Positions 4,512 through 45,595 of a stretch of 64,000 nt of DNA are shown here, in pieces (within the stretch, counting starts at the first letter, position 1; each line of letters starts with the position of its first letter). Source of the DNA: Deltaproteobacteria bacterium (lineage in GTDB: Bacteria > UBA10199 > JACPAL01 > JAHFST01); the NCBI GenBank assembly GCA_023265625.1, contig JAHFST010000004.1, positions 129,709 to 193,708 on the forward strand. The letters run 5' to 3'. The position numbers and the translations under genes were made by a program. The notes below the pieces were generated by a model. It saw only the letters and a program-made list of their open reading frames with translations. It did no database searches and was not told the DNA's origin.

Positions 4512-4513
4512 TT

Positions 4514-8143: not shown

Positions 8144-8152
8144 GGAGACATC

Positions 8153-12436: not shown

Positions 12437-12437
12437 T

Positions 12438-14332: not shown

Positions 14333-14333
14333 T

Positions 14334-19067: not shown

Positions 19068-19630
19068 AATTATCTCCGCTCATTCCTTATATCGCCATCG
19101 CTTGTTCTTTGATGGCCTGTGAACGTAATCCCAAAAAAACGGGATATGAACTCCTGCCGGATATGGCGCATTCCATGCCTTACGACGCCTTTGCGCCAAA
19201 CCCCGTCACCCGGGATGGAAAAACACTCCAACTGCCCCCACCGGGCTCCATTCCGCGCGGTTTTCTGCCGTATCATTACGGCAACACACCCGAAGAAGCG
19301 GAACGCGCCGGCCGCGAAGTGACCAATCCCATTCCGGTGACGCCGGCGTCCCTGGCGCGCGGCAAGAAGGTCTATGAAACTTTTTGCTCCGTCTGTCACG
19401 GCGATCAAGGCAAAGGCGATGGCCCCTTGATCCCCAAGTTCCCGAATCCTCCATCCTACACGTCGAAAAAAGTTCAGGATTATCCGGAAGGACGGCTCTT
19501 TCACATCATCACCCAAGGATCTGGGATGATGGCCTCCTACGCCTCGCAGATTTCCCCGGAAGACCGATGGAAGGTGGTGCAGTACGTCCAGACCTTGCAA
19601 CACCCGCATCCGGTGGAGGTGGCCAAATGA
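19064..19630 (+). CDS. actE: ACIII subunit ActE (lipoprotein monohaem cytochrome c)
   Basis: 188 aa. It has a lipobox (SLMAC) and a single CSVCH haem motif. Confidence 0.85.
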   Translation: MKLSPLIPYIAIACSLMACERNPKKTGYELLPDMAHSMPYDAFAPNPVTRDGKTLQLPPPGSIPRGFLPYHYGNTPEEAERAGREVTNPIPVTPASLARGKKVYETFCSVCHGDQGKGDGPLIPKFPNPPSYTSKKVQDYPEGRLFHIITQGSGMMASYASQISPEDRWKVVQYVQTLQHPHPVEVAK

Positions 19631-20769
19631 ATCAGGAACGCTTTCGCATCTCAAATAAACAGAGAAAGTTTGCCTTCTCTTTGTTGGGGCTGGGCGGCTT
19701 GGCAGTGGCCATTGCCTTTTTTCTGGATCCACAACGCGCCTGGGCCAACATCCTGCTGAATAACGTCTACTTTTTATTCTTGGCCGTTTCCGGACTCGTC
19801 TTTATCGCCATCCATTATTTGACCAGCGCGGGTTGGTGGGTGGGACTGCGTAGGATTCCGGAGGCGATGACCGCGTTCATCCCCGTGGGCGGGGGATTGA
19901 TGCTCCTGCTGTTCTTTGGCCGGCATTCCCTCTATGAATGGACGGATACCGAAACCGTGGCGCACGACGCCGTCTTGTTGGGAAAGGCCGCCTATCTCAA
20001 CACGCCCTTCTTCTTTGCCCGAATGATTGGCATCATCGCCATCTGGAGCCTCTTCGCCATGATGTTGCGAAAAAGATCCATCGAACAAGATCGCACGGGA
20101 GGTTGGTCGGCCCATCAAAACTTATACCGTCTCTCGGCGCTATTCCTCCCCGTCTTCGCCGTGACCCTCACCATCGCCAGTGTGGATTGGTTGATGTCGC
20201 TGGAACCTCACTGGTTCAGCACCATTTTTACGTTCTATACATTTTCAGGGCTTTTCCTGAACGGCATCACTTTCATCACCTTGGCGACCGTCCTGCTAAA
20301 ACAACGCGGTTACTTGCAGAGCTTCCTGAATGATGACCACCTGCATGATCTGGGCAAACTCGTTTTTGCCTTTTCCAGCTTCTGGGCCTACATCTGGGTC
20401 TGTCAATATCTCCTGATCTGGTACAGCAACATCCCCGAAGAGACGGTCTACTACCATCTGCGCACCGACATGAATTGGGGTTGGCTGTTTTTGCTAAACT
20501 TGGCCATGAATTGGGCCATCCCTTTCCTGGTCTTGCTGCCACGCTCTTCCAAGCGGAACCCCGCCGTACTCCAACGCGTCTGCGTTCTTCTTTTGATCGG
20601 GCATTGGCTAGACCTCTATATCATGGGGTTTCCACGTGTCGCCTCACTCCGCAGTATTGGCCCCTTGGAGGTCTTGATCACCATGGGTTATGCCGCTGGG
20701 TTCTTTTTAATCACCGGCCGAGCCTTGAGCCAAGCCCCCCTCGCCCCAAGGAACGACCCCTATCTATGA
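19627..20769 (+). CDS. actF: ACIII subunit ActF (second NrfD-like membrane subunit)
   Basis: 380 aa from ATG (MNQERF) that overlaps the actE stop, with about 10 TM helices. The ORF-track upstream extension was rejected. Confidence 0.8.
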   Translation: MNQERFRISNKQRKFAFSLLGLGGLAVAIAFFLDPQRAWANILLNNVYFLFLAVSGLVFIAIHYLTSAGWWVGLRRIPEAMTAFIPVGGGLMLLLFFGRHSLYEWTDTETVAHDAVLLGKAAYLNTPFFFARMIGIIAIWSLFAMMLRKRSIEQDRTGGWSAHQNLYRLSALFLPVFAVTLTIASVDWLMSLEPHWFSTIFTFYTFSGLFLNGITFITLATVLLKQRGYLQSFLNDDHLHDLGKLVFAFSSFWAYIWVCQYLLIWYSNIPEETVYYHLRTDMNWGWLFLLNLAMNWAIPFLVLLPRSSKRNPAVLQRVCVLLLIGHWLDLYIMGFPRVASLRSIGPLEVLITMGYAAGFFLITGRALSQAPLAPRNDPYL

Positions 20770-20835
20770 CAAAGATCATCTATCACCCTGCCATAAATCA
20801 TTGGCTATTTTCTCAAAAAAACATAACCTTGTCTG

Positions 20836-21516
20836 ATGATTGAGCTTCCCTCTTACAACAACCCTCCCCTGAAACGGCATGTGAACAAAGAGGTGGAGGA
20901 CCTCCCCTCACCCATGGATCCTCCCGAGGCCTATGCGCCTTCCAACGTGGGAGAAATCACTGCGGGCGAACTTTCCGCTCCCCTCCAATCCTTGATCCAG
21001 GATCATGAGGAGTTTCTTAAAATCCTGACGGCCTTTGACCGCGCCTTGGTGGAGCTCAAGGAAAGGGCGTGGAAATTCACGCCCGAGATCAGCGCGGTCT
21101 TGAAACGTTTTTTTCAGTGGACGGACGAAGAGATGCCGCGTCATTCCCGCAAGGAGGAGAAGGCGCTCTTCCCAATTTTAAGCGAAAAGTTTTTGGCCTC
21201 CGGTGAACACAGCCCGGGCGCACAACCGGTGACGCCCGTCGATGTCATGGAGGCGGATCATCGGACCGTCGAGCTTGGTGTCAATCTTGTGTTTAATTTG
21301 TTAGGACTCGCAGCGCGCATCAAGGATGCTGAGGCACGAGACCTGCTCTTTGAGCACGCCTTTCATCAAGGACAGGAAATTGTCGAGGTCATGAAACTGC
21401 ACATTTACAAAGAGAATACCACGCTCTTCCCTCTCGCCCAGAGACTCTTGAGCGCAGAGGAAATGTCCGTGGTGGAGAGAAAAATGAATTTTAATACTCC
21501 AATCCTACAGACCTAA
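20836..21516 (+). CDS. Hemerythrin-like (HHE cation-binding domain) protein, possibly NO/iron-sulfur repair related
   Basis: 226 aa. His/Glu-rich motifs (DHEEF, HSRKEEKALFP, EADH) fit the hemerythrin fold. Confidence 0.5.
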   Translation: MIELPSYNNPPLKRHVNKEVEDLPSPMDPPEAYAPSNVGEITAGELSAPLQSLIQDHEEFLKILTAFDRALVELKERAWKFTPEISAVLKRFFQWTDEEMPRHSRKEEKALFPILSEKFLASGEHSPGAQPVTPVDVMEADHRTVELGVNLVFNLLGLAARIKDAEARDLLFEHAFHQGQEIVEVMKLHIYKENTTLFPLAQRLLSAEEMSVVERKMNFNTPILQT

Positions 21517-21598
21517 ACACCCATAGGTGCATGGCGAGTAGGACGGGGCGGCGCGGGAAACGGCGCCGTCTTCCGAAGTTCCTTCGAGTTTAGAAGGA

Positions 21599-22885
21599 AT
21601 GGAATTGAGAAGGAGAAGAGACGTGATAGCCGCTGCTGAAGCACAGGATCTTATCCTGCGCGAGACAGTTGTCCTTGGTCCCAAAACCATTTCCCTGCGA
21701 GACTCTCTCGGCGGGTATCTTTTTCATCCCGTTATCTCACCTTCGGCCCTGCCACCGTTTGACAACTCGGCGATGGATGGGTTTGCCCTGCGCAGCTCTG
21801 ATACCAAAGGGGCGTCGGGGCATCAGCCCGTTCCTCTCAAAGTGGTGGGGACAACGGCGGCAGGTGACTTGCCCTTGTCCATTCAATCAGATGAAGCCGT
21901 CCGGATTATGACCGGGGCCCCCATTCCGTCAGGCGCCGATACAGTGGTCCCCTTTGAGGAAACGCTGGAGACGCCGGGATGCTGCTTGATTCAGAAGACA
22001 CCGGACATGGGTCAACACATCCGTCGCGCGGGCGAAGATGTGGCGAAGGGATCCGAACTGTTAAAAAGTGGCGATAAAATCACCTCCCGAACCGTGGCCC
22101 TGTTGGCAGCCGTCGGGATCGATAGGGTTGAGGTGTATCAAAAACCCCGTGTATGTGTCCTCTCCACGGGCAGCGAACTGGTTGATGTAGGGGCGGGGTC
22201 TCCCCGCCCAGGCACGGACACCGCCCCCCTACAACCGGGACAAATTTATAATAGCAACGGCCCCGCCCTCGAAATGGCCTTGCAAGAGTTGGGTATTGCG
22301 GCCCAGGTGCTGAAGACGGCCAATGACACGGAAGGGTCGTTGGAAAAATCCCTCCGAGACCATTTGGATGTCGATGTATGGATCACCGTGGGCGGTGTTT
22401 CTGCGGGTGATTTTGATTTGGTTCCCAAGGTGCTGCAAAAACTGGGTACGAAGATTCTCTTTCATAAAGTGGCCATCAAACCTGGGAAACCCCTACTTTT
22501 TGCAACCTATGCAAAGGGCGAACACGGGGGTTCACCCCTACACATCTTTGCACTCCCCGGGAACCCTGTCTCAGCCCTCGTGGTCTTCGATCAGTTTGTC
22601 CGCCCTGCCTTGCTAAAAATGATGGGAAGCAACCTTCCCTATCGTTCCCGTAAAACCGCCGTGGCCATAGAGGACTTGAAGGGAAGTGAAGGTAAAGAGG
22701 ATTATCTTCGCGGCATCGCAACCTACCGGGATGGACGCTATGAAGTACGATCGGCCGGCTCCCAAGGATCCGCCCGGCTGCTCCCGCTCGCGCTGGCCAA
22801 TGTGACGATCATTATCCCGTCATCGGTAAAAAAAGTGACGGCGGGCGAAAAAGTTGAGATCGAATTTTTTCAGGAGAAGTTATGA
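21599..22885 (+). CDS. moeA: Molybdopterin molybdotransferase MoeA
   Basis: 428 aa. Signatures include PFDNSAMDGFALRS and GGVSAGDFD, typical of MoeA. Confidence 0.88.
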   Translation: MELRRRRDVIAAAEAQDLILRETVVLGPKTISLRDSLGGYLFHPVISPSALPPFDNSAMDGFALRSSDTKGASGHQPVPLKVVGTTAAGDLPLSIQSDEAVRIMTGAPIPSGADTVVPFEETLETPGCCLIQKTPDMGQHIRRAGEDVAKGSELLKSGDKITSRTVALLAAVGIDRVEVYQKPRVCVLSTGSELVDVGAGSPRPGTDTAPLQPGQIYNSNGPALEMALQELGIAAQVLKTANDTEGSLEKSLRDHLDVDVWITVGGVSAGDFDLVPKVLQKLGTKILFHKVAIKPGKPLLFATYAKGEHGGSPLHIFALPGNPVSALVVFDQFVRPALLKMMGSNLPYRSRKTAVAIEDLKGSEGKEDYLRGIATYRDGRYEVRSAGSQGSARLLPLALANVTIIIPSSVKKVTAGEKVEIEFFQEKL

Positions 22886-23127
22886 GGGTAAAGCTCCTTT
22901 TTTTTGCGACTATCCGAGATTATTTTCGAACGGGAGAAAGGGAAGTGACGATCAATCTCCCTAAAACCGTTCGGGAGATTTTTATGAGTCTTTTTGAAGA
23001 TAAAACAACGGCCCAGCAATTTCTCTCCTCGGTCCGCTTTGCGATTAATTGCGCCTATGTGTCGCATGAGACACCCGTGAAAGATGGAGATGAGCTAGCC
23101 GTCATTCCACCGGTGAGCGGGGGGTAG
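22882..23127 (+). CDS. moaD: Molybdopterin synthase sulfur-carrier subunit MoaD
   Basis: 81 aa with a ubiquitin-like fold. It ends in GG. Confidence 0.8.
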   Translation: MRVKLLFFATIRDYFRTGEREVTINLPKTVREIFMSLFEDKTTAQQFLSSVRFAINCAYVSHETPVKDGDELAVIPPVSGG

Positions 23128-23128
23128 C

Positions 23129-23515
23129 ATGATCCTGATTGTGGAAGGTCCGATTGATGTCGCCACCGTACTCGCTTCCGTACAAACGGAACGGGCGGGA
23201 GGCGTTGTGCATTTCATCGGCACCGTCCGACAAGATGGAGACATCACGGGACTTCACTATGAATGCTATCCCGAGATGGCCCAACAGAGGATGGCCGATC
23301 TTGCCGAGGCCGCTACGCGGCGCTTGGGACTGGAAAAAGTTTCGGCAGTCCATCGCGTAGGCTGGGTTCCACTGGGAGAAGTGGCGGTTGTCATTGCGGT
23401 TTCTTCGGCGCATCGAGCGGAGGCCTTTGAAGGATGTCGGTGGATGATCGATCAAATTAAACAAGAGGCGCCCATCTGGAAAAAAGATGGGACGGGGTGT
23501 TGCGCATGTTCCTGA
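23129..23515 (+). CDS. moaE: Molybdopterin synthase catalytic subunit MoaE
   Basis: 128 aa in the MoaE family (HRVGWVPLGEVAVVIAVSSAHR). Confidence 0.85.
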   Translation: MILIVEGPIDVATVLASVQTERAGGVVHFIGTVRQDGDITGLHYECYPEMAQQRMADLAEAATRRLGLEKVSAVHRVGWVPLGEVAVVIAVSSAHRAEAFEGCRWMIDQIKQEAPIWKKDGTGCCACS

Positions 23516-24090
23516 AAAAGAGGGCAGACATATTAGGGGTTGTTTTGGCCGGAGGAAGATCGTCACGCTTTGGCAGCAACAAGGCCCTGGCGCTGTTTCA
23601 GGGGGTTTCTTTTGTGGAACGGACACTGAAGGTCATGGATGCCTTGTTTGACGAAGTCGTCGTGGTGACCAATACCCCGGAAACTTACCAATCCTGTCAT
23701 CACCGCATTTTTCAGGACATGATGCCTTATGCCGGCCCGATGGGCGGCCTGGTAACGGCCTTTGAAAAAACTTCTTATGATCGCCTGCTGGTGGTGGCCT
23801 GTGACATGCCCCTGCTCGATACGCAGGGCATTCAAGGCATCATCGCTCAGGATGATGGCGACGCCGTCATTCCGGTTCATGACGGCATCGCTGAATACCT
23901 GATGGCGCTTTATCATCGAGATCTGTTACCAGACTTAAAAACTTCCCTGTCCCAAGAACAAAGATCACTCCGAAAATTTTTCTCGGGAAGACCGGGGGTT
24001 TCTTGGCTGCCCATGGCCGGAAAGACGTGGCTCAATGTCAATACCCGTGAAGCCTTGCAAGATTTGGAGAACGTCCATGCCACTGATTGA
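23497..24090 (+). CDS. mobA: Molybdenum cofactor guanylyltransferase MobA
   Basis: 197 aa with an LAGGRSSRFG nucleotide-binding motif. Confidence 0.85.
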   Translation: MLRMFLKKRADILGVVLAGGRSSRFGSNKALALFQGVSFVERTLKVMDALFDEVVVVTNTPETYQSCHHRIFQDMMPYAGPMGGLVTAFEKTSYDRLLVVACDMPLLDTQGIQGIIAQDDGDAVIPVHDGIAEYLMALYHRDLLPDLKTSLSQEQRSLRKFFSGRPGVSWLPMAGKTWLNVNTREALQDLENVHATD

Positions 24091-25066
24091 TTCGTTTCAA
24101 AGAAAAATTGAATACCTACGTTTTTCAGTGATCGACCAGTGCAATATCCGCTGCCAGTACTGCATGCCGCCCGAGCAGAAGCTGTGGGAAAAACAACCCA
24201 ATCTTTTGACCTTTGATGAGATCTGCCGCATGGTGACCATTCTCGCCTCGCTTGGCGTCAGGCGCGTGCGCATCACCGGCGGGGAACCGTTGGTCCGAAA
24301 GGGGGTCCCCGACCTGATACGGCGGTTGAACGACGTGTCCGATCTTGACGAGGTCCTACTCACCACCAACGGGATTCCCCTACCCACCCTGGCCCGCCCG
24401 CTGCGGGATGCCGGCCTGGAAAAAATTAATATCCACCTCGACACCCTTTCGGCTGAAAAATTTTGCAAAATCACCTATGGCGGAGATATTCGAAAGGTTC
24501 TGACCGGGATTGAAGAATCGCAGCGGGTGGGCTTGCAACCGATCAAGCTCAACGCCGTCCTTCAGAAGGGAATTAACGATGATGAGGTGGAAGACCTGCT
24601 GCGCTTCACCGCCAACCACGGCCTGATTCTGCGCCTGATTGAGATGATGCCGATCGGTCCCGGGCGTGAACTCATGCCTTCCCTGTATATGCCTGTGCGT
24701 CTCATTCGGGAGAAACTTGCGGAAAAATACACCTTGTCACCTACCAATCCCCACCTGGGAGGAGGCCCAGCCGTGTATTACCGCGTGAAAGAACTCAACA
24801 CCGTCATCGGTTTCATCAGCCCTGTTTCCGAACCATTTTGCGGCACTTGCAACCGCATTCGCATCTCCAGTGACGGACGGTTTCAGGATTGCCTGGCCTT
24901 CGACGGGACTTTTTCTTTTCGTGACCTGCTGCGCAATCCGCTGATGACCGATGAGAGAATTGCCGCAAAAGTCCATTGGCTACTCAGCGGCAAGGCTGAG
25001 AGTCACGACGATTTTCAACAAGCAGCAGATATTCGCACCCCATGCATGACTGGAATCGGAGGCTAA
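24077..25066 (+). CDS. moaA: GTP 3',8-cyclase MoaA (radical SAM)
   Basis: About 329 aa from the internal Met (MPLIDSF). It has a CNIRCQYC radical-SAM cluster and a C-terminal second cluster CGTCNRIR. Confidence 0.9.
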   Translation: MPLIDSFQRKIEYLRFSVIDQCNIRCQYCMPPEQKLWEKQPNLLTFDEICRMVTILASLGVRRVRITGGEPLVRKGVPDLIRRLNDVSDLDEVLLTTNGIPLPTLARPLRDAGLEKINIHLDTLSAEKFCKITYGGDIRKVLTGIEESQRVGLQPIKLNAVLQKGINDDEVEDLLRFTANHGLILRLIEMMPIGPGRELMPSLYMPVRLIREKLAEKYTLSPTNPHLGGGPAVYYRVKELNTVIGFISPVSEPFCGTCNRIRISSDGRFQDCLAFDGTFSFRDLLRNPLMTDERIAAKVHWLLSGKAESHDDFQQAADIRTPCMTGIGG

Positions 25067-25972
25067 ATGATCGATATTTCAGAAAAGAAAGAAACACTGC
25101 GAACGGCGCGCGCCGAATCGCGAATCCTGGCCAAAAAAGCCACGATTGACCGTGCGATCACGGGAGATACGCCCAAGGGAGACGTGCTGAATGTCGCCAA
25201 GGCCGTGGCCTGCCTGGCGGCCAAGAAAACCTCCGAGCTTATCCCTTACTGTCATCCGCTGCTCATCGATGCCGTCACATTCACCAGTGAACACAAAGAC
25301 TCGGAATTGATACTACGGGTGGAGGTCAAGACCATTGCCAAAACCGGGGTCGAGATGGAGGCCCTGACGGCGGTTTCTTTGGCCGCCTTGACCGTCTACG
25401 ACATGCTCAAGGGTATCGATAAGGATGTCGTGATCGGTGAAACACGACTCATCGAAAAACAGGGTGGCAAGAGCGATTACGTCGAGACATTTCTGGTGCC
25501 GCTCAAGGCCGCCGTCCTGGTGACGTCTGACAGCGTTTCCGCGGGAAAGAAGCCGGATAAATCGGGAAAAACCATTGTCGAAGAGATGAAGAAATTTCCT
25601 GTCGAGGTGAGGCACTACGAGATTGTTTCCGACGACCAAGAAAAGATTCGCGCCAAAATTCTCGGCTGGCGGGAAGCGGGGATCGACCTCATTCTCACCA
25701 CCGGCGGTACGGGGCTGGGCCCGCGCGATGTGACGGTCGAGGCGGTGAAGGGATTGATCGAGCGAGACATCCCCGGTGTTTCCGAAACGATGCGCGCCTA
25801 CGGCCAGAAGAGGACGCCTTATGCGATGCTGTCGCGGGGGGCGGCCGGATTTATCGGAAAGACCCTCGTCATTACGCTGCCTGGCTCCGCTCGCGGCGCG
25901 AAGGAATGCCTGACGGCCCTGTTCCCAAGCATCCTTCATGTCTTCAACATGGTTGCCGGAGGGGGGCATTGA
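25067..25972 (+). CDS. moaC: Fused cyclic pyranopterin monophosphate synthase MoaC / MogA(MoaB)-type molybdopterin adenylyltransferase
   Basis: 301 aa. The N-terminal half carries MoaC signatures (LIPYCHPLL, TGVEMEALTAVSLAALTVYDM). The C-terminal half is MogA-like (LILTTGGTGLGPRDVT). Confidence 0.85.
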   Translation: MIDISEKKETLRTARAESRILAKKATIDRAITGDTPKGDVLNVAKAVACLAAKKTSELIPYCHPLLIDAVTFTSEHKDSELILRVEVKTIAKTGVEMEALTAVSLAALTVYDMLKGIDKDVVIGETRLIEKQGGKSDYVETFLVPLKAAVLVTSDSVSAGKKPDKSGKTIVEEMKKFPVEVRHYEIVSDDQEKIRAKILGWREAGIDLILTTGGTGLGPRDVTVEAVKGLIERDIPGVSETMRAYGQKRTPYAMLSRGAAGFIGKTLVITLPGSARGAKECLTALFPSILHVFNMVAGGGH

Positions 25973-26730
25973 TGGAACATCTCCCGCTCTTGGCGGCGTT
26001 GTTCTTTGTCGCGGCCCTGGTCTATTCGATGGCGGGGTTGGGGGGCGGCTCCACTTATCTCGCCCTCTTGGCACTTTTTTCCTTTCCTTATTCCTTCATT
26101 CCCAAGGTAGCCCTCTTCTGCAACCTGGCCGTGGTCCTCTCAGGTTTCTGGTTTTTTACCAGGGCCGGGTATTTTTCTCTCAAGCGGGCCTTGCCCTTTG
26201 TCGTGTCCTCAATCCCAATGGCCTATTGGGGAGGTTCCATCTCGATCGACAAAACACTCTTCACCCTCCTCCTGGGACTCTCACTGGCGATTGCCTCACT
26301 CCGGATGTTTTTTGCGGATAAAAGTTTCCAGTCTCGCCCCCCTCTTTTCTGGAAAAATGCCTGGATCGTGGGTTTACCAATGGGGGCTGCGTTGGGTTTT
26401 CTCTCAGGCGTCGTGGGGATCGGTGGGGGAATTTATTTGACGCCGCTCCTCCTGCTGATGGGATGGGCGGATGCGAAGCAAGCCGCCGCGTCGGCAAGTT
26501 TCTTCATCCTGGTAAATTCCATGGCCGGATTGATCGGGCAGTTTTCCAAAAGCGGCTTGCCCTCGGGGAACGAAATATCAGCGCTATGGATTCTCCTGGG
26601 TGCCGCATTTCTGGGAGGGCAAATTGGCAGCCGTCTCGGATCACAAAAGATATCCCCGCTGATTCTCCAACGAATCTCCGCCTCCCTGATTCTTTACGCC
26701 TCGGGAAGATTATTGATTGGATTATGGTAA
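25972..26730 (+). CDS. TSUP (TauE/SafE, DUF81) family membrane transporter
   Basis: 252 aa with about 8 TM helices and a duplicated GxGGG motif (MAGLGGGSTYL; VVGIGGGIYL). Its ATG overlaps the moaC-mogA stop. Confidence 0.7.
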   Translation: MEHLPLLAALFFVAALVYSMAGLGGGSTYLALLALFSFPYSFIPKVALFCNLAVVLSGFWFFTRAGYFSLKRALPFVVSSIPMAYWGGSISIDKTLFTLLLGLSLAIASLRMFFADKSFQSRPPLFWKNAWIVGLPMGAALGFLSGVVGIGGGIYLTPLLLLMGWADAKQAAASASFFILVNSMAGLIGQFSKSGLPSGNEISALWILLGAAFLGGQIGSRLGSQKISPLILQRISASLILYASGRLLIGLW

Positions 26731-31293: not shown

Positions 31294-31698
31294 ATGAAAA
31301 GAAAATTATTAATAATTTCAATGGTTTGCAATATTGGTTTTTTGGCCAGTTGCGCCAAGACCGGGTCGATCCATGCCAATCGAGCCATTATTCCGCCGCC
31401 GACTTTTATCACGGAGGGGACGGCCTCGTGGTATGGCAAGCAATTCCACGGTCGCAAAACCGCCAGTGGCGAGCGTTTTAACACTTACGCCCTGACCTGT
31501 GCACATCGGACACTGCCCTTTGGGACACGTTTGAAGGTCATTAATGTGAACAATGGCCGGGAAACCATCGTCATCGTGAATGACCGAGGCCCCTTTATTC
31601 GATCACGAGTCCTGGATGTCTCGCTAGCCGCCGCCGAAGAGTTGCAATTTATCGGGCAAGGAACCGCGTTGGTTCGTATTGAACGGATGAATGACTAG
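31294..31698 (+). CDS. rlpA: RlpA-like double-psi beta-barrel lipoprotein (septal lytic transglycosylase family)
   Basis: About 134 aa from MKRKLL with lipobox LASC. The DPBB signature GTASWYGKQFHGRKTASGERF is present. Confidence 0.75.
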   Translation: MKRKLLIISMVCNIGFLASCAKTGSIHANRAIIPPPTFITEGTASWYGKQFHGRKTASGERFNTYALTCAHRTLPFGTRLKVINVNNGRETIVIVNDRGPFIRSRVLDVSLAAAEELQFIGQGTALVRIERMND

Positions 31699-32560
31699 AC
31701 CCTCGCACCCCATTCGCGGCTTCATCACCTCACTGATTCTTTGCACCACCCTGCTTTTTTGTAATGCCCTCCAAATTGCGAGTATATTGGTCAAACCGAT
31801 CGCCCCAACCCTGTTTCGCCGCATCAACCGCGAGATCGTCAATGCCTGGTGGGGACTCTGCGTGATTTGGGCGGAACGCCTTTATGGGATGAAACTCATC
31901 ATCACCGGCGACCCCATTCCGGCTCAAGAAAACGCGATCGTCATCTTGAACCACCAAGCCATGGTGGATATTCCCATCATGCTGGCCTTTGGTTTACGCA
32001 AGGGGCGACTGGGTGATTTGAAGTGGTTTGTCAAGGATGTCATCAAGTACGTCCCGGGAGTGGGCTGGGGGATGTTGTTTATCAACTGTCTCTTCATCAA
32101 GCGCGATTGGACGGCGGACCGTGACTATATCGAATCCGTTTTTGCCAAGATTGTCGACAACCGCATTCCTTCCTGGATTGTCTCGTTCGTGGAAGGCACC
32201 AGGCTCCGCCCCAAAAAACTGGCCTTGAGCCAACAGCACGCGCGAGAACGCGGACTGGTCCCCACCCATCACGTCATGATCCCGCGCACCAAGGGATTCG
32301 TCGCCACCACGCAAGCCCTGCGCAATCACGTCACGGCGGTTTACGATCTGACCATCGGTTACCTGGATGGCCCGCCCACCCTATGGCAATGGGTGCAGGG
32401 GCTCGTGCCCGAGGTCCATCTCCATACCCGCCGTTTCCCCATCGAGACACTCCCCACCGAAGAAAAAGCCCTCTCCGATTGGCTCTTGCAACTTTTTCAA
32501 GAGAAAGACCGGTTACTTGAAAATTTTTATCAGAATAAGAGATTCTCATTTCTTAAATGA
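31691..32560 (+). CDS. 1-acyl-sn-glycerol-3-phosphate (lysophospholipid) acyltransferase
   Basis: 289 aa. It has an N-terminal TM helix, the HX4D motif NHQAMVD and the FVEGTR motif. Confidence 0.75.
   Translation: MTRPSHPIRGFITSLILCTTLLFCNALQIASILVKPIAPTLFRRINREIVNAWWGLCVIWAERLYGMKLIITGDPIPAQENAIVILNHQAMVDIPIMLAFGLRKGRLGDLKWFVKDVIKYVPGVGWGMLFINCLFIKRDWTADRDYIESVFAKIVDNRIPSWIVSFVEGTRLRPKKLALSQQHARERGLVPTHHVMIPRTKGFVATTQALRNHVTAVYDLTIGYLDGPPTLWQWVQGLVPEVHLHTRRFPIETLPTEEKALSDWLLQLFQEKDRLLENFYQNKRFSFLK
32520..32554. repeat. Direct repeat copy A (35 bp, aaaatttttatcagaataagagattctcatttctt)
   Basis: 32 of 35 positions match copy B at 33049..33083. It lies at the 3' end of the acyltransferase gene. 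Confidence 0.7.
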
Positions 32561-33135
32561 TGACCAAATCCCTCTCAGAACTCAACCCCACCGGCCAACT
32601 TCTCCTCTACCAAGCCGAGGATGGCCTGACCAAACTCGAAGTGAAATTGGTGGACGAAACTGTTTGGCTGACTCAGTTGACTATGGCTGAACTATTTCAG
32701 ACGACTAAGCAAAACATCAGTCTGCACCTAAAAAACATACTTGAAGATGGGGAGTTAACTGAAGATCGAGTCGTCAAGGATTACTTGACAACTGCCGTTG
32801 ATGGTAAAAAATATCAGACAAAATTCTATAATCTCGAGGCCATCATCGCAGTAGGTTACCGGGTGCATTCTAAAAGAGGCACGCAATTTCGTCGCTGGGC
32901 CACGGAACGCCTGAACGAATACCTCGTCAAAGGTTTCACGATGGATGATGAGCGTCTGAAGCAAGTTTCCAATATCGGATCGGATTACTTCGATGAAATG
33001 TTGGAACGGATCAAGGATATCCGTTCCAGTGAGAAGCGATTCTACCAAAAAATTTTTATCAGAATAAAGGATTTTCATTTCTTTCCCAAACCGCAAAATC
33101 ATTCCCGGCGGGAAACAACTCTGACTGAGAGCTGA
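32557..33135 (+). CDS. rhuM: RhuM-family virulence/island protein, 3'-truncated fragment
   Basis: 192 aa. The N-terminus (LLLYQAEDGLTKLEVKLVDETVWLTQLTMAELFQTTKQNISLHLKNI) is characteristic of RhuM. Full-length proteins are about 330 aa, and homology ends at RFYQK where repeat copy B begins. The region is AT-rich relative to its flanks. Confidence 0.65.
   Translation: MMTKSLSELNPTGQLLLYQAEDGLTKLEVKLVDETVWLTQLTMAELFQTTKQNISLHLKNILEDGELTEDRVVKDYLTTAVDGKKYQTKFYNLEAIIAVGYRVHSKRGTQFRRWATERLNEYLVKGFTMDDERLKQVSNIGSDYFDEMLERIKDIRSSEKRFYQKIFIRIKDFHFFPKPQNHSRRETTLTES
33049..33083. repeat. Direct repeat copy B
   Basis: It matches copy A. It overlaps the truncated 3' end of rhuM and the 3' end of the minus-strand 610-aa gene. 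Confidence 0.7.
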
Positions 33136-34891
33136 GCAGGATTGGGCTCACATTGTCCAACTGCAAGACCCCGGTAAAAAAAGTTTCGAGGAAGCGCGCC
33201 ATCTGGTTGGAGGGTAGCGAGGGCTCCAACCAAGGCCGGACATTGGAGGGATGTTGCAGGACCAAACGACCGCCCGGGCGCAGGGCGCAAACCGACGCCG
33301 CGACTTGGCTCATATCTTCCGGATAAAACAAATAGACTCGGTCGGCGGTTTTGGCAAAGCGTTCCAAAAATGCCGCCTGCGAGAGCTTCTTGCCACGGAT
33401 CGTAACCCCCTGCCGACTGATATCCAGGTGTTGAACACTCCCACGCCGCCCGGCGGCACACACCCCCGCCTTCATCAGCCGCTTATCAAAACGGGCATCT
33501 CCCACAAAAAACGTCGTGGCATCTTTTCCCCTTGGGTACACGAGGGCCTGGTGAATTCTTGTTTGATCAATCGGTTTGGCCAGACCTTCGCGGAACGTCA
33601 AGGCCGTGGGAAACGTGGCCTTGATCCAATCGATATGCCCTGCAAACATCGCCGGATCCATCGTGGCCAGATGCCGGGGGACCAACCGTACCACCATCTG
33701 GGAAAGCGTCTGCCGGCACAGGGCCTCGCTCTGACTCTGGGAATGAAACTGCAAACATTCGTTGGTCTCCGAGACAATTTTTCCCCATTCCGGTTCCGGG
33801 GGCGGCCATTGGCCCGCCGCATGTCGCAACCAACCGTTGAACGGGACTGTATACCGGCAAAGATAACTGAACGAATGCCGCGCCACGCGCTTGGCCCGGG
33901 TCTGAAACCAGCGTAAAAAAGGGGTCAGCACGCCATGTGAGGAACGTTCCAGTTGCGCGGTGGGCACCACCTCCGTCTCAAGCGCCCGTAACCAAGTGAG
34001 CGGCACAAAGCCTTGCCTCGATTCGAACTCGAGAATTTTTCTTTGCCGATCCGACACTTTTAGAAAAAGCAGGCCCGCCGTGTGAGAGACAGACCGCCGT
34101 TGAAAAATATTAATGACATTGCCGGTCAGGTTGATCAAGGCCCACGGGGTTTGGTACACAGGACGGGTGTCACGAAACTGTCGCTCGATCTTAAAATCGG
34201 CCTCATGTTCGGGAGGGTTGAGTATCTGCAGGAACTGCGGCGAGATATCACCCCGGTCTTGTGTCACGAGAATACCGCCGGGTTTCAACGTGTTAAAAAC
34301 CGTGGTCGCGCTGGAAAGATCGTTGGTGTAAAAAAGGTAGATGACATCAACGGAGTTTTGGTGTTGCCGCATGAACTCTGGATCGGAATAAGAAGTCAGA
34401 TGAAACGTCAATCGTCCCTGACTTACCGATCCCGCAAAATAAGCCTGCAAGGACTGCATCGCCTCGGAATCATGCTCCACCACCAAGACCCGATCGCCAC
34501 GCCCCAGGGCTAGTTCAATGGTGCGATAATCGTATCCTGCCCCTAGAATCATGGTGGTCTTGCGAGAGGCGACACCCTGCAGGGATGACACCGCCCCTTC
34601 CACTTCCGATTGGCCAATACATCTCACTTGAGTCGGTATCATCGGAAACAAACGTCGCAGCGCCGTTTCATATTTTGGAAAATCCGGCTCTAAGGGCAAC
34701 ATCAGGGCCAAACTATCGGCAATGGCATAGGCAAAAGGGGTTAATCGATTGTGATCGATAGGGCCTCCTGATTGGAACACCTCCCATAATTCTTGTTTCA
34801 GCTCCGACCAGGGCACATCCTGCTTAAAAAGCCTCGCTTGTCCGGCTTCAGCGGTAAAGCGGCCCCACAATTTATCAAGTAAACCGAACAT
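33059..34891 (-). CDS. Protein with two tandem Rossmann-fold (class I methyltransferase / spermidine synthase-like) modules
   Basis: 610 aa. Two repeats of a Gly-rich nucleotide-binding motif followed by an (L/V)(K/R)PGG(I/R)LV motif are present: ILGAGYD...LKPGGILV and LRPGGRLVL. No closer family is recognised. Confidence 0.4.
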   Translation of the reverse strand: MFGLLDKLWGRFTAEAGQARLFKQDVPWSELKQELWEVFQSGGPIDHNRLTPFAYAIADSLALMLPLEPDFPKYETALRRLFPMIPTQVRCIGQSEVEGAVSSLQGVASRKTTMILGAGYDYRTIELALGRGDRVLVVEHDSEAMQSLQAYFAGSVSQGRLTFHLTSYSDPEFMRQHQNSVDVIYLFYTNDLSSATTVFNTLKPGGILVTQDRGDISPQFLQILNPPEHEADFKIERQFRDTRPVYQTPWALINLTGNVINIFQRRSVSHTAGLLFLKVSDRQRKILEFESRQGFVPLTWLRALETEVVPTAQLERSSHGVLTPFLRWFQTRAKRVARHSFSYLCRYTVPFNGWLRHAAGQWPPPEPEWGKIVSETNECLQFHSQSQSEALCRQTLSQMVVRLVPRHLATMDPAMFAGHIDWIKATFPTALTFREGLAKPIDQTRIHQALVYPRGKDATTFFVGDARFDKRLMKAGVCAAGRRGSVQHLDISRQGVTIRGKKLSQAAFLERFAKTADRVYLFYPEDMSQVAASVCALRPGGRLVLQHPSNVRPWLEPSLPSNQMARFLETFFTGVLQLDNVSPILLSSQSELFPAGNDFAVWERNENPLF

Positions 34892-37009: not shown

Positions 37010-37711
37010 TCAGGCATGGTCCTTACCGGTAATTCGCTCCCTCCTGATCTTTTCCTCTGTCTGTGTCGCACGAAAAAGATTAGCGGCCAGCTCCGTACTC
37101 CCCATATGATCGAGGATTTGCTCGTTTTTTTTCAACTTCTTCCGATGATGAATATCCTGGGCCGTCATACCACCGTACAACCCCATGTAACCGTGGTTCT
37201 GAAAGATGGCATAGTCGATGGAAGTAATGACACCGGCACGCTTTGCTGTCTCGGCCAGTCGTGTATTGTGAATCTTCATTTCATCCCTGAGAAGAAGTCG
37301 GCGTCCGACCTCGGTCGCCTGATCAGCAATCTCCTGTCGTCTTGTTTGAACAGCAAAATAGGTCTGGCCCAAGGCCACAATCTCTTTTGAAGGATCCGCG
37401 TTTTGAATAACAAGATAGCAACCATACCGGGAAAGGAGCGTTGTCCGAACCTCACGTTGCCCTCCCTTGCCAATTTCGATCATTTCGGTGATATCAACAA
37501 AATGATCCTCGATGCGCTGCCCACTGTTAAAACAGGCCGTTCGGGCCTTTAAGACCACCTGTTCAAAATTTCGGTAATCCGTGTAACCGAGAACCTGGGC
37601 AAAATCTCGACTTGACCAGTATTCATGACCAGCATCGTTAGTACGGCGGATACGTTCGAAGGGGGAAATATTGCCGGGGGTGGCGGGAACTTTTTCAAGA
37701 TCGTTGGTCAT
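37010..37711 (-). CDS. dinD: DNA-damage-inducible protein D (DinD) family
   Basis: 233 aa. The N-terminal region (SPFERIRRTNDAGHEYWSSRDFAQVLGYTDYRNFEQVVLKARTAC) resembles E. coli DinD. Confidence 0.55.
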   Translation of the reverse strand: MTNDLEKVPATPGNISPFERIRRTNDAGHEYWSSRDFAQVLGYTDYRNFEQVVLKARTACFNSGQRIEDHFVDITEMIEIGKGGQREVRTTLLSRYGCYLVIQNADPSKEIVALGQTYFAVQTRRQEIADQATEVGRRLLLRDEMKIHNTRLAETAKRAGVITSIDYAIFQNHGYMGLYGGMTAQDIHHRKKLKKNEQILDHMGSTELAANLFRATQTEEKIRRERITGKDHA

Positions 37712-37782: not shown

Positions 37783-39225
37783 GTGAACCAACCCACGGCG
37801 ACCAAACTATCCCAATTATTCGGCATCGACCTCCGCTCCCTCGCGCTGTTTCGGATCGGGACCGGGATACTCATCATCGCGGACCTGATTGATCGGAGCC
37901 GGGATCTTTCAGCTCATTACACCGACTTTGGGTTGCTGCCGCGTCATGCCCTGCTGGAAAAATTCGCCAATGTTTGGGACTGGTCGTTGTACAACTGGAG
38001 CGGGACCTTCCAGCTCGAGGCCTTGCTCTTTGTCGTGGCAGGGCTCTGTGCCGCCGCCTTGTTGGTGGGGTATCACACCCGGCTCGCCACTTGGGCCTCT
38101 TGGATCCTGCTGGTGTCCCTCCAGGCCCGCAACCCGATGGTGCTCCAGGCGGGCGATATTTTACTCCGACTCATGCTCTTTTGGGGACTCTTTCTGCCCC
38201 TCGGGGCGCGCTACTCCGTGGATCAATGGCGTCATCCAGACGCTGAGACGGGACCGGGTCTGGTCGTATCCGTCGCCACCATCGCCCTGTTGCTCCAAGT
38301 TTGTTTTGTCTACAGTTTCTCAGCCATTTTGAAGTGGCACCCCATCTGGATCAAAGACGGGACCGCCGTTTATTACGCCCTCAATATTGATCAAATGACC
38401 ACCCCGCTCGGCAACTTTATCCGACAGTTCCCATTATTCATGAAGGGCATGACCTTTGCGACTTATGCGCTGGAGGCCTTAGGCCCCTTCTTGTTTTTCT
38501 TCCCTTGGAAAAATGGCCCGATTCGAACGCTTATGATCGTTATCTTTATTAGTCTCCATCTAGGCTTGGGCCTCTGCCTGGAACTGGGATTGTTTCATTA
38601 TATCGATATGGCGAGCTTGATGGTGTTCCTCCCGGCTTGGTTTTGGGATCGTCGTCACCAAAACCGCCATCCTCCCATTCACCTCGATCTCTCCATTTGG
38701 AAAAACAGCCTGGCCCTCTGCTTCTTGATTTTTATCGTCCTGTGGAACCTGCAGACGGTCAGCGCGAAAAAATTCCCGCTTTCTCAAAAAATAGCCTGGC
38801 TGGGTCCCCTCCTGAAGATCGACCAGATGTGGGGCATGTTTGCGCCTTACCCGTTGATGGAGGATGGCTGGTACGTCATCCCGGGCAATTTACTCAATGG
38901 AAAACAAGTCGACTTGTTTCGCCAGGGACAGCCTGTCGATTGGAACAAACCCAAACTGGCCTCAACCCTGTACAAAAACCAACGCTGGCAAAAATACATG
39001 ATGAACATCTGGGGCGCCAATAACTACCCCTACCGACTCTACTACGGCCAATATCTCTGCCGGGATTGGAATACCCGCCATGAAGGACAGGAACAGGTCG
39101 ACAACTTTGAGATCACCTTCATGCGGGAGGACACCTTACCCAACTACCAGATAAAAGCCCCAGAGAAGGTGGTGATTTGGAAACACTATTGCTTCAAGGT
39201 TCCGGAGACCCTCCCGGTCAGGTAG
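37783..39225 (+). CDS. HTTM-domain (vitamin K-dependent gamma-carboxylase-like) membrane protein
   Basis: 480 aa. The characteristic N-terminus is LFGIDLRSLALFRIGTGILII, with multiple TM helices. Confidence 0.7.
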   Translation: MNQPTATKLSQLFGIDLRSLALFRIGTGILIIADLIDRSRDLSAHYTDFGLLPRHALLEKFANVWDWSLYNWSGTFQLEALLFVVAGLCAAALLVGYHTRLATWASWILLVSLQARNPMVLQAGDILLRLMLFWGLFLPLGARYSVDQWRHPDAETGPGLVVSVATIALLLQVCFVYSFSAILKWHPIWIKDGTAVYYALNIDQMTTPLGNFIRQFPLFMKGMTFATYALEALGPFLFFFPWKNGPIRTLMIVIFISLHLGLGLCLELGLFHYIDMASLMVFLPAWFWDRRHQNRHPPIHLDLSIWKNSLALCFLIFIVLWNLQTVSAKKFPLSQKIAWLGPLLKIDQMWGMFAPYPLMEDGWYVIPGNLLNGKQVDLFRQGQPVDWNKPKLASTLYKNQRWQKYMMNIWGANNYPYRLYYGQYLCRDWNTRHEGQEQVDNFEITFMREDTLPNYQIKAPEKVVIWKHYCFKVPETLPVR

Positions 39226-39245: not shown

Positions 39246-40664
39246 CTACATTTTCCGGGATTGCCCATTAGACAACTGTCCCAACCGATTGGTCAGCGTC
39301 CTCTCAAGTCTCAGCGGTTCCGGGGCCGGCGCGCCGGTCACCTCCTCCCACATCCAGGCCGGTTCCATACTGAGGTAGTGGGGGAATTCGTCGCTCCATG
39401 CGCGTAAGCCATGCCAGACTTGTCGGTACATCTCAATGCGGAGCTTTTTAAAGTAGCGCATCTTGCCATCCGGTGCGGCGATGAAGTCGTCGGCAAAAAT
39501 CTTGGTCTTGGGGAAACGTTGCGTGGCCACCTCCTTGAGGGCTCGATCGAACCGGAGACTTCCAATACTCACCCAGGCAATGCGACGGGGATCCAGTTTG
39601 TCGCTCAGTTGCGCCATCAGGCCTTGGTAGGCCTCCTGCCAACCGTCAAAGTGGATCATCGGATCCAAATGCAAACCGACTGGATAACCCGCCGCCTGAA
39701 TCCGTGCGGCCGCGTCAATCCGCTCCGTAATGGACGCGCATTTAAGCTCCTCCCGCATCGCAATCACTTCAGGCATTAACGACCAAGAAACCACCGTATG
39801 CCCTCGGGAATCGAGTTCAAGCAGATTGCCAATGCGGTCCGATTTTGTCTTCAGCTCCAAGAAGGCATTGGGCAGCCGCGCAAAAAACGGGACCAACTCC
39901 CGGCTGAGGGAAGTAAGATCGTCCAGCGCCAGGGAATCAGACAATTCACCGGTTCCGATGCGAAAAATACGTTCCGGTTCCTCCCGCACCCGCGCTTCGA
40001 TGGCCTGCAAAAAATCATCAATGTTCGCGGCGAGCGTCAGGACCGGATTATTTTTGAGATAGCTTTGCAGGATGCAATAGGTGCATTCCAGGTGGCAATT
40101 GGAGACCGGGTTAAAAACATAATCACCGCAGTTAACCGCGTGGCGAATCTTCGGGAACGGTTTTAAAAACGAGCCGCGATGCCGCACCAGGGCCAAGATC
40201 CGCTTGGCCTCCGTCATCGGGCCCGGCACCTTCCAGGCTCGAAAATCGTCAATTTCCTCCAACGGAATTTTGGGAAATTGAGTGCGGACCCTCACCGCCA
40301 TCGGAGAGGTCACAACCGACCGTTCCACGATCAAACTTTCCGGAGAAAAAGGCTGGAACGAACGAGAGGCCGCATCGATCTTCTCGCCCCACATCCCCCC
40401 CTCCTGTCTCACGCAACTCATCAGGTAGTCGCGAACCTGCCGCCCCAACGCCCGCGGCCCCCGGTTTTTCGATTCAGAACAAGTAAGGGCCGCCGCCTGC
40501 AAAATCGTCCCGGCCGATTGCTCACGCAACCGTGAAACATCTTCCACGGCCTCGAGGATTTCCAAAGAGAGATTCACGCCGACGGGATGATGTTCAAACC
40601 AAGCGGCCAGTCGGCCCCGTTCCCCATCGGGGAAACGCCCCAATTTTCGGGTCATCGTCTTCAT
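39246..40664 (-). CDS. Spore-photoproduct-lyase-like radical SAM protein with a ~150-aa N-terminal extension
   Basis: 472 aa. The Cys triad CHLECTYC is followed by an SPL/DNA-repair-photolyase-like TIM-barrel region. The N-terminal domain is unrecognised. Confidence 0.5.
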   Translation of the reverse strand: MKTMTRKLGRFPDGERGRLAAWFEHHPVGVNLSLEILEAVEDVSRLREQSAGTILQAAALTCSESKNRGPRALGRQVRDYLMSCVRQEGGMWGEKIDAASRSFQPFSPESLIVERSVVTSPMAVRVRTQFPKIPLEEIDDFRAWKVPGPMTEAKRILALVRHRGSFLKPFPKIRHAVNCGDYVFNPVSNCHLECTYCILQSYLKNNPVLTLAANIDDFLQAIEARVREEPERIFRIGTGELSDSLALDDLTSLSRELVPFFARLPNAFLELKTKSDRIGNLLELDSRGHTVVSWSLMPEVIAMREELKCASITERIDAAARIQAAGYPVGLHLDPMIHFDGWQEAYQGLMAQLSDKLDPRRIAWVSIGSLRFDRALKEVATQRFPKTKIFADDFIAAPDGKMRYFKKLRIEMYRQVWHGLRAWSDEFPHYLSMEPAWMWEEVTGAPAPEPLRLERTLTNRLGQLSNGQSRKM

Positions 40665-41251
40665 GCCTTCTGTTGATCCCCCATCTCTTTCAAATGATAA
40701 TCAAAAAACAAAATCCACACGAGCAAGGCGAGTGTCAACAAGGCCCCGCCGAAAAAAGGCGTACTGGCGAGCAAGAAAGGCCAGAGATAAATAACGGGGC
40801 CACGTTGTTTGGCCATACGCACCAGATAAACACCGACATAGGCCCACATCACCACTTCCATCGTTTGAACTTCAAAAGTCGAAATAACCTGCCCCACGCG
40901 CAACGCCTGGTGCAGGACCACCGGCAACAGCCAGAATAACGACAAAAAAATCCACGCACGACCACGGATGTTTGTAGGGGCGACCCGGTGGGTCGCCCCC
41001 GTGATTTGCCAAAGATCCAACAAACTGATCATCGTGATTGGGAGGGCAAACACCTTATCGTAGGTAAGCCAGACAAAATGGGGATTCAGATAAGTCCCCA
41101 ACCAAATGGCGCCCAAAAAACAAACCAACCAATAACTCCCCCGGCGCCAATCTTGGCACAGCACCCAATGGCCGCTCCCGGGCAAGAGAACCCCGACCAA
41201 GTACCCGAGGCCATATTGCAAACGCGTCATTTTTTCGCCGTGGTCATTCAT
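40661..41251 (-). CDS. Hypothetical membrane protein, co-operonic with the SPL-like gene
   Basis: 196 aa with 5-6 TM helices. Its stop overlaps the upstream gene by ATGA-type coupling. Confidence 0.45.
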   Translation of the reverse strand: MNDHGEKMTRLQYGLGYLVGVLLPGSGHWVLCQDWRRGSYWLVCFLGAIWLGTYLNPHFVWLTYDKVFALPITMISLLDLWQITGATHRVAPTNIRGRAWIFLSLFWLLPVVLHQALRVGQVISTFEVQTMEVVMWAYVGVYLVRMAKQRGPVIYLWPFLLASTPFFGGALLTLALLVWILFFDYHLKEMGDQQKA

Positions 41252-44374: not shown

Positions 44375-45595
44375 TCACCCTACCATTTTCCCCGCAAGCG
44401 GCAACGACTTAATATGCCCTTCAATAATCGCAATGACATGTTTCGATAAAGGCAGATGTTTGCGCTCGCTCCGCCAAACTTGACGAAAGCGTTGCACCGT
44501 TTCTTTGGCGGTATGGATTACCAATGGCTCCGGTAACCCGGCCTTCGCGGCCAAATAGGACAATTGTGACTGGGACAATTCCGCCATGCGCCTGGATTTG
44601 ACAAGCTTGAGCGCCATTTGCTCGTCGGGGATATAGCCGATGGTGGAAACAAAATCATAGCCTGGCGCCAATTTCGCCTTTCTCCGATCAGGATAGATGA
44701 GTGACCAATTTTTAAGGTGCATATCCGCATTGCCGATGAGGGTGTTAAACACCAAACGACGGATAAATTCGACAAGGCCGTCATGACCCGTCTCCTGCCA
44801 AAGCACTTCGGCAATTTTTTTGTAACTCCCCTTGCGGTATTTGTCGTCGGGATAGACGCCAAACACCTGAGCAAAGTCTTCCATGTGTACGGGACCGCTG
44901 CCGGTGCGGTCAAAACGACGCACCGCCAAAGCTGGTCCGTGCATGTCCCCGATATTCTCTGGCAAACCGGATATTCCATCCATATCAACCAGTCGCAGCT
45001 CCGGTATGTCCATGCCCATGTGCCGTGCCAGGGTCATCATAGAATATTCGTTTTCCGGCACCCCCACGAAGCGCGCGGATGGAAACTTCACAATCCACGA
45101 ACCACCCACCCCTTCGGCTGGAACCGTCAAACCCCCTTTGGCCTCCATGACAGCCGAAAATTTGAGCTGCACCCCCGCCAGCGAAAAACGCAGCACATTT
45201 TTGCGCGCGAGGGACACGCCGTCGGTCACGGCCGGGGGCCAAGTCGTGCCATCTGAAGGCTCAATCGTAACCGCCCCGGGCAAATCCCGCCCCAAGACCC
45301 ACAGTAGAAAAAATTCGCGACGGACATTGACCCCAGCACGGGCCGCCAAATAATCCCGTAAGTGTCCTTCGGGCAATAAATTGGAAAAAAAGGCCGGTAG
45401 TCTCATGCGAGTCGGCTGGATGTCGGTAATCAACCCACCCAAACGATCCTGAAAAGAAAGACTCAAGACCGGCCGCCGGGGATTGTCTTGGTAAGACTGG
45501 CTAAAGCTAAAGATCGTCTGCTCCCCCGGCAGGAAGGTCAATACCCCCAGGATTTCGCCATGCAACAAAACGTTTAGCGAGTGAATATCCGGCAT
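44375..45595 (-). CDS. hipA: HipA-family Ser/Thr kinase toxin
   Basis: 406 aa with HipA N- and C-terminal domain character. It lies directly downstream of an HTH protein. Confidence 0.7.
   Translation of the reverse strand: MPDIHSLNVLLHGEILGVLTFLPGEQTIFSFSQSYQDNPRRPVLSLSFQDRLGGLITDIQPTRMRLPAFFSNLLPEGHLRDYLAARAGVNVRREFFLLWVLGRDLPGAVTIEPSDGTTWPPAVTDGVSLARKNVLRFSLAGVQLKFSAVMEAKGGLTVPAEGVGGSWIVKFPSARFVGVPENEYSMMTLARHMGMDIPELRLVDMDGISGLPENIGDMHGPALAVRRFDRTGSGPVHMEDFAQVFGVYPDDKYRKGSYKKIAEVLWQETGHDGLVEFIRRLVFNTLIGNADMHLKNWSLIYPDRRKAKLAPGYDFVSTIGYIPDEQMALKLVKSRRMAELSQSQLSYLAAKAGLPEPLVIHTAKETVQRFRQVWRSERKHLPLSKHVIAIIEGHIKSLPLAGKMVG

Follow-up and report, generated by a model that had tools for sequence, protein, structure and literature searches.

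Prophage e14, which resides in icd, is a familiar case of integration at the 3' end of a protein-coding gene in which the gene end becomes duplicated. Homology-facilitated illegitimate recombination (HFIR) works with a homologous anchor and has as its stated hallmark a joint at 3–10 bp of microhomology (PMC3240628), and a similar model has been proposed for type VI secretion system (T6SS) effector-immunity arrays and for Rhs displacement (PMC5361080). The RhuM family is embedded in restriction-modification (R-M) and defence loci and is proposed to be a toxin domain (PMC3710099), while a representative of the PADLOC candidate defence family PDC-S05 is reported to protect about 1000-fold against the phages T7 and T5 (bioRxiv 10.1101/2024.09.26.614923). 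Here we describe a truncated rhuM gene, bracketed by two imperfect direct repeats, in a 64,000-nucleotide (nt) stretch of a Deltaproteobacteria bacterium (assembly GCA_023265625.1, contig JAHFST010000004.1, positions 129,709 to 193,708; hereafter the window). It is probably the scar of one or more illegitimate recombination events, which left rhuM codons 1–165 within the overlapping 3' ends of two convergent genes, one for a lysophospholipid acyltransferase and one for an orphan protein of 610 amino acids (aa).

The window encodes RhuM/PDC-S05 residues 1–165, 87–91% identical at the nucleotide level to full-length members, but these are only the N-terminal 47% and are followed by a 26-residue out-of-frame tail; moreover, the fragment adjoins a housekeeping lipid acyltransferase gene and not a defence operon. 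With HFIR and the T6SS/Rhs displacement scars the locus has in common a joint at 6 nt of microhomology (AAAATT, within the range of 3–10 bp given in PMC3240628), resident gene-end remnants that are kept or duplicated beside newly arrived genes (PMC5361080), and no requirement for a recombinase. It differs in that neither the donor allele nor the homologous anchor can be seen in the window and in that the outcome is a truncated cargo gene, not a new functional module. Like the repeats left by prophages and islands in gene 3' ends, those in the window are diverged 3' coding copies and the interrupted gene is kept functional; however, the window contains neither an element body nor an integrase among the genes scanned (those covering 23–45 kb, plus 30 major open reading frames (ORFs) elsewhere that were compared with Pfam), the repeat is only 35 nt long and one of its boundaries is a microhomology joint inside the cargo gene. 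Direct repeats also flank genes inserted as transposons, with their target-site duplications, or as integron cassettes, but the repeats in the window are 35 nt long, imperfect, derived from target coding sequence and not attC-like, terminal inverted repeats are absent, and there is no transposase among the genes scanned. The scar falls within a known class, that of illegitimate-recombination and displacement remnants, and, taken alone, the locus is an ordinary gene remnant.

The rhuM fragment, its joints and the repeats

The ORF containing the rhuM fragment spans positions 32557–33135 on the plus strand, with its native start at the second ATG (32560, N-terminus MTKSLS). It matches the RhuM family profile PF13310 with 148.5 bits (cut-off 33.7) and PDC-S05 with E = 3e-73, the PF13310 match covering only profile positions 2–98 of 252, so that the domain is incomplete and the gene a fragment. 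The protein falls in a 90%-identity cluster that also includes full-length members; these closest full-length relatives measure 345–349 aa, longer than the approximately 330 aa assumed for RhuM in an earlier note on this DNA.

The joints (Table 1) were placed by nucleotide alignment of the window with the loci of five relatives (L008–L012), to which the fragment shows a ratio of non-synonymous to synonymous rates (dN/dS) of 0.05–0.08. Homology to rhuM starts exactly at the ATG at 32560, and the upstream flanks of the five relatives all differ. The left joint thus lies at most 5 nt upstream of this ATG, the intervening AAATG, together with the A of the ATG, supplying the acyltransferase stop codon. 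At the other end, homology does not stop where the second repeat copy begins, as the earlier note had it, but continues for 6 nt, to 33054 (..TTCTACCAAAAAATT). Past this position the relatives read CGCGACATC (RDIYKLAADYD), while the window reads TTTATCAGAATAA; the continuation in the relatives is CGCGACATCTAC (..QKIRDIYKLAADYD). The insert therefore measures 494 nt, made up of 5 nt and rhuM codons 1–165, with nothing else. Its GC content is 45.5%, like that of the rhuM relatives (43–47%) and unlike that of the host, both flanking genes having about 55%, which bears out the earlier description of the segment between the repeats as AT-rich.

The rhuM gene is a horizontally acquired candidate anti-phage gene, present here as its broken-off front half, and the locus is a scar, not a working element. 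The fragment, of 191 aa, is very probably a remnant without function, with an aberrant tail encoded by the second repeat copy and the antisense of the 610-aa gene. Translation could nevertheless take place, since the rhuM ATG and the stop codon of the acyltransferase gene overlap (TGATGA). Changes specific to its lineage comprise six synonymous and three non-synonymous ones and the ORF is intact; relaxed selection is not detectable from these nine changes. The synonymous divergence (dS) to the nearest rhuM relative is 0.38, so the divergence of rhuM gives no constraint on the date of the insertion. No second rhuM that could have served as donor was found in the window.

The two repeat copies, A and B, are both 35 nt long and identical at 32 positions, the first 19 nt forming a perfect core. 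In these respects they are as the earlier note described them, and copy B indeed holds both the start of the aberrant rhuM tail and the last codons and stop of the 610-aa ORF (..ERNENPLF); on the minus strand, copy B comprises the stop, the seven complete codons before it (RNENPLF) and one base, the third, of the E codon that precedes them. Copy A had been said to encode the last residues of the acyltransferase. It does encode (E)NFYQNKRFSFL of this 289-aa protein, but the final K codon and the stop lie just outside it. When the 19-mer is sought in the window with up to three mismatches, only the sites in A and B are found, against a chance expectation of 0.02, and none of 100 shuffled sequences contains it two or more times. 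The blastn E-value of the pair is 5e-7. An exact-pattern scan of JGI metagenomes revealed no further occurrence of the core. Neither copy carries a terminator-like site, a promoter or an Rfam feature among those searched for. The structure of the locus is not an assembly artefact, since two other assemblies are identical to the window: a 204 kb European Nucleotide Archive metagenome contig (L001) over the 21.8 kb compared and a Logan contig from a different run and assembler (L002) over 7.7 kb. Copy B might also have been left over from the 3' end of rhuM. This was ruled out, the similarity of copy B and its right flank to rhuM 3' sequences not exceeding that of shuffled controls, with one marginal, unrelated match in L011 as the sole exception.

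The acyltransferase, of the LPLAT/AGPAT type, contains both an Acyltransferase domain (PF01553) and an Acyltransf_C domain (PF16076), the match to the latter extending to residue 285 of 289 and thus across copy A. Matches to the NCBIfam YihG-like and YihG equivalog models are below the curated cut-off. More than 1000 homologues exist, the best with about 60% identity and typically around 303 aa long, and they have in common the motif ..EKDRLLE.FYQNG.F.. (LLENFYQNGxF), followed by variable tails. The repeat is genuine acyltransferase coding sequence, since the homologues share this motif and the C-terminal domain match spans copy A. The present terminus, ..FSFLK, is made by the junction: the last codon (AAA, lysine) and the stop (TGA, 32558–32560) were created by the insertion, the stop consisting of TG and the A of the rhuM ATG. 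After copy B, the acyltransferase frame remains open over a putative displaced original tail. The ancestral protein would thus have run on via ..FSFLSQTAKSFPAGNNSD to a stop, giving 302 aa, the usual length of the homologues, and its gene would have overlapped the convergent 610-aa gene by about 70 nt.

One gene at the locus had been thought to have acquired a chimeric 3' end. The 610-aa gene is not chimeric; the ends derived from the junctions are that of rhuM and the last codon and stop of the acyltransferase gene. As the last codons and stop of the 610-aa gene lie in the repeat, the insertion leaves its carboxy-terminus unchanged. The 610-aa protein belongs to no Pfam family, and neither 5.8 billion protein clusters nor the GTDB genomes contain a homologue; there is a weak match to PADLOC mad2 (E = 2e-5, residues 109–214). 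By eye, two segments resembling S-adenosylmethionine-dependent methyltransferases can be discerned (ILGAGYDY..., LKPGGILV; ...LRPGGRLV).

Repeats and breakpoints at other rhuM loci

Other rhuM loci (L013–L105) were collected from JGI metagenomes and IMG/VR and included 61 complete rhuM genes with enough flanking sequence. A bracketing repeat was defined as a direct repeat that scores 32 bits or more when the 250 nt preceding the gene are compared with the 400 nt following it; reversed-sequence controls reach at most 22 bits. Such repeats bracket 11 of the 61 full-length genes (10 distinct cases). Counted by locus, 10 of 60 rhuM loci have them, versus 3 of 139 control genes of similar size in the same loci (odds ratio 9, p = 4e-4). 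Within their loci, seven of the ten distinct repeats have exactly two copies, those of L038 and L049 have three, and that of L054 is dispersed, with four.

In most cases the downstream copy corresponds to the 5' end of the next gene, or to its 5' untranslated region (UTR) plus ATG, and the upstream copy is a truncated, diverged duplicate of it. The genes concerned include cas1, a type III restriction gene (res) and a gene for a winged helix-turn-helix protein (Table 1). At hsdS in L052 there is a weaker repeat of 18 nt, with 28 bits below the threshold; in all, the repeats around other rhuM genes are 18 to 113 nt long. The spacing from repeat to repeat is 1.1–1.4 kb, the size of rhuM alone. 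In the longest case, at cas1 in L022, the copies show 20 differences, 18 of them synonymous, which for duplication in situ followed by decay has p = 0.004 under a generous model. It follows that, until they were juxtaposed, these copies evolved apart, in different lineages and as working genes. An attC or integron reading of the repeats elsewhere was ruled out, since these repeats lack hairpin potential and correspond to 5' UTRs or to the coding 5' ends of neighbouring genes.

In public data, rhuM ORFs are commonly found truncated and with aberrant tails, their breakpoints being scattered across residues 135–289, and rhuM pseudogenisation appears to be frequent. Among proteins P0122–P0241, many rhuM ORFs on long contigs are truncated and carry unrelated tails, a small cluster of them ending around residues 172–174 (RDIYK...). 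Of 5426 complete E. coli genomes, 4487 carry a distant RhuM-family gene annotated as rhuM (matched over only 72 nt), and a few strains have a closer copy that is truncated or split.

Two of the relatives' loci, L010 (from position 325) and L012 (from 245), share 98.5% identity over rhuM, counted from its ATG, and over the DNA that follows it, while the sequences directly upstream are unrelated, containing a PDC-S31-like gene in one and an Mrr type IV restriction enzyme gene in the other. By this comparison, a recombination breakpoint lies right at the rhuM start codon. The Mrr gene is common to L009 (602–793) and L012 (1–192), but L009 has an extra ORF of 150 aa before rhuM. Strong direct repeats also flank genes other than rhuM in rhuM neighbourhoods, at L073:917–1684 (100 nt, 92%), L032:14901–16334 (31 nt, 100%) and, on the minus strand, L017:6499–7275 (40 nt, 92.5%). 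These may be other single-gene insertions in defence islands.

Table 1. Positions of the features at the scar in the window and of repeat pairs around rhuM genes in three other loci.
Feature	Sequence	Positions	Strand	Basis or description
Lysophospholipid (YihG/AGPAT-like) acyltransferase gene, 289 aa	window	31691..32560	+	Pfam PF01553 and PF16076
Repeat copy A	window	32520..32554	+	AAAATTTTTATCAGAATAAGAGATTCTCATTTCTT; native-type acyltransferase 3' coding sequence (..NFYQNKRFSFL)
Left-joint 5 nt, AAATG	window	32555..32559	+	between end of copy A (32554) and rhuM start
rhuM 5' fragment, codons 1–165	window	32560..33054	+	PF13310, PDC-S05, alignment with relatives
Right joint, 6-nt microhomology AAAATT	window	33049..33054	+	common to rhuM codons 164–166 and start of the acyltransferase-end repeat
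Repeat copy B	window	33049..33083	+	AAAATTTTTATCAGAATAAAGGATTTTCATTTCTT; second, diverged acyltransferase 3' end, reads KNFYQNKGFSFL in acyltransferase frame
Aberrant 26-codon rhuM tail, FIRIKDFHFFPKPQNHSRRETTLTES then stop	window	33055..33135	+	from copy B and antisense of 610-aa gene
Putative displaced original acyltransferase tail, SQTAKSFPAGNNSD then stop	window	33084..33128	+	open in acyltransferase frame after copy B
610-aa orphan ORF	window	33059..34891	-	stop at 33059–33061, inside copy B; converges on acyltransferase gene
Repeat pair, cas1 5' end	L022	508–620 and 1805–1917		113 nt, 82%
Repeat pair, type III res	L035	7920–7960 and 9060–9100		41 nt
Repeat pair, winged helix-turn-helix gene	L068	7837–7904 and 9198–9265		

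Origin of the scar

In the scheme that we favour, rhuM, still of full length, would first have arrived immediately behind an acyltransferase gene, whether in this lineage or in that of a donor. Codon 165 of rhuM would next have been connected, by a joint at microhomology, to a further copy of the acyltransferase end. This second copy could have come from the incoming DNA of a relative, which would make the event an HFIR, with a homologous anchor on one side and the illegitimate joint on the other, or it could have come from the same chromosome, in which case the event would be a deletion. The joint would have removed the 3' half of rhuM while both resident genes stayed terminated, and an integrase would not be needed. 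The empty site is predicted to read ...CGGTTACTTGAAAATTTTTATCAGAATAARRGATTYTCATTTCTTTCCCAAACCGC..., and a full-length rhuM downstream of copy A would continue ...CAAAAAATTCGCGACATC... Duplicated gene ends that have diverged in this manner are just what HFIR yields. The pattern of synonymous differences at L022 is what recombination with an anchor and an illegitimate joint predicts. In the window itself, two of the three mismatches between copies A and B are synonymous in the acyltransferase frame, in our reading of the sequence (about 0.16 by chance), which is no more than suggestive of an origin from two alleles.

Several points weigh against this scheme. The order and number of the events are inferred without an empty-site or parental sequence, and the scheme presumes competence or HFIR in an uncultured organism. 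It does not account for the AAATG at the left joint. Three mismatches, of which two are synonymous, are too small a number to establish that A and B stem from separate lineages, and the codon usage and third-position GC content of the repeat are uninformative on a foreign origin because the host itself prefers AAT, TTT and GAA. A perfect 19-nt core with mismatches in its flanks also resembles the core of an attachment (att) site. Finally, a convergent overlap of 70 nt in the ancestral arrangement is long. In another metagenome (L003), a homologous acyltransferase gene (6001–6915, plus strand) overlaps a convergent CitMHS transporter gene (6893–8119, minus strand) by 23 nt, so convergent 3' overlaps do occur in this acyltransferase family.

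The earlier note had regarded the locus as the scar of an integrative element with a duplicated att site and an internal deletion. A foreign insertion with a duplicated target and a truncated rhuM is indeed what the locus contains, and a secondary joint or deletion on the right-hand side is plausible. Att sites, however, are not supported, because no integrase was found among the genes scanned and no tRNA target, the insert consists of rhuM plus 5 nt and the right joint is one of microhomology. In its full form this explanation holds that an integrase-mobilised island inserted site-specifically into the acyltransferase 3' end, copy A being attL and copy B attR, and brought a replacement gene end with it, and that one or more later internal deletions spared the 5' half of rhuM. 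Direct repeats with an identical core are present at both ends (19 nt within the 32 of 35), their flanks are imperfect, the target site is the 3' end of a gene, with the coding sequence restored, rhuM is a classic island cargo (PMC3710099), and two of the three mismatches are synonymous, as in prophages that replace gene ends, such as e14. On the other hand, no integrase, transposase or recombinase gene lies between the repeats or among the scanned genes of the window, no tRNA or tmRNA target and no Rfam match was found near the scar, and the element offers no body or cargo beyond one gene: there is no island DNA besides rhuM between the repeats, and the right flank of copy B is unlike the DNA downstream of rhuM. 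The element would also have to begin at most 5 nt from the rhuM ATG, or else a second deletion would have to end exactly at attL; its right end is a microhomology joint within the repeat, the core does not recur in the window or in JGI metagenomes, and the repeat-bracketed full-length rhuM units elsewhere are the size of a single gene. An island of this kind is therefore unlikely. Nor does the locus have the marks of a transposon or insertion sequence, as terminal inverted repeats were not found at the ends of the insert, no transposase is among the genes scanned, and the repeat is 35 nt long and imperfect, compared with a short exact duplication.

A further rival is a templated insertion in one step, during replication or break repair: a nascent strand would have left the acyltransferase end after ..TTTCTT, copied 494 nt of rhuM from another replicon or incoming DNA and returned 35 nt upstream, at AAAATT, the mismatches arising later. 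Microhomology at the return joint, the presence of nothing but rhuM sequence between the repeats, and repeats of 18–113 nt around other rhuM genes, unlike a transposase stagger, all fit this course of events. But a donor rhuM is lacking in the window, the strand would have to have departed, by coincidence, precisely at the rhuM ATG, and the copies differ by 8.6% while the fragment between them shows no signs of decay (its changes are mostly synonymous and its ORF is intact); furthermore, the analogous repeat at L022 cannot be a duplication in situ. We regard a templated insertion as improbable. It is quite doubtful, too, that rhuM is a single-gene insertion module, which by itself or through a dedicated mechanism repeatedly lands at the very ends of unrelated genes (cas1, res, hsdS, the acyltransferase gene) and leaves diverged duplicates of the neighbour's terminus with the interrupted gene intact; the window would then preserve, in decayed form, a hitherto undescribed means by which operons acquire defence genes. 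That the repeats are a chance match, an assembly chimera or a conserved functional motif, such as a terminator or regulatory site, unrelated to any insertion is hardly credible: the segment is AT-rich and of low complexity and both copies are at gene ends, but the match far exceeds the chance expectation, the two further assemblies agree with the window, neither copy bears a terminator-like or Rfam feature and the boundaries of the repeats coincide with those of rhuM homology.

Genomic surroundings and significance

No close relative of the locus was found when the 610-aa protein and the acyltransferase were scanned in GTDB and the exact pattern in JGI metagenomes, and the contexts of the closest acyltransferase homologues are not syntenic with the window. 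Among about 100 fetched rhuM loci, none has rhuM adjacent to an acyltransferase gene.

Genes for respiration and cofactor metabolism occupy positions 3705–22885 and 23100–26000 of the window. They encode cytochrome c, NarG/NarH-like (nitrate-reductase-like) molybdopterin oxidoreductase subunits, two major facilitator superfamily transporters, a set resembling alternative complex III (an Fe-S/molybdopterin protein, NrfD, ActD and cytochrome c) and the molybdenum-cofactor proteins MoeA, MoaA, MoaC, MobA, MoaE and MoaD. From these metabolic surroundings, the scar sits in a housekeeping region of the chromosome. Accessory-type genes are found a few kb from the scar, namely those for a Bro-N domain protein (37010–37711, minus strand) and a HipA-like toxin kinase (44375–45595, minus strand); the ORFs between these two that lack a Pfam family include 37783–39225 and 40661–41251.

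The locus illustrates how overlapping gene ends can take up a foreign gene with neither resident gene destroyed, and how defence genes are cut short at microhomology joints. Of potentially greater importance is the wider pattern: roughly one rhuM gene in six is bracketed by diverged copies of a neighbour's end, significantly above controls, and to our knowledge such an enrichment of diverged neighbour-gene duplications around rhuM has apparently not yet been described in the literature searched. If confirmed on complete genomes, it would point to a recombinase-free route, by anchor homology and an illegitimate joint, that shuttles single defence genes into R-M and CRISPR-Cas operons.

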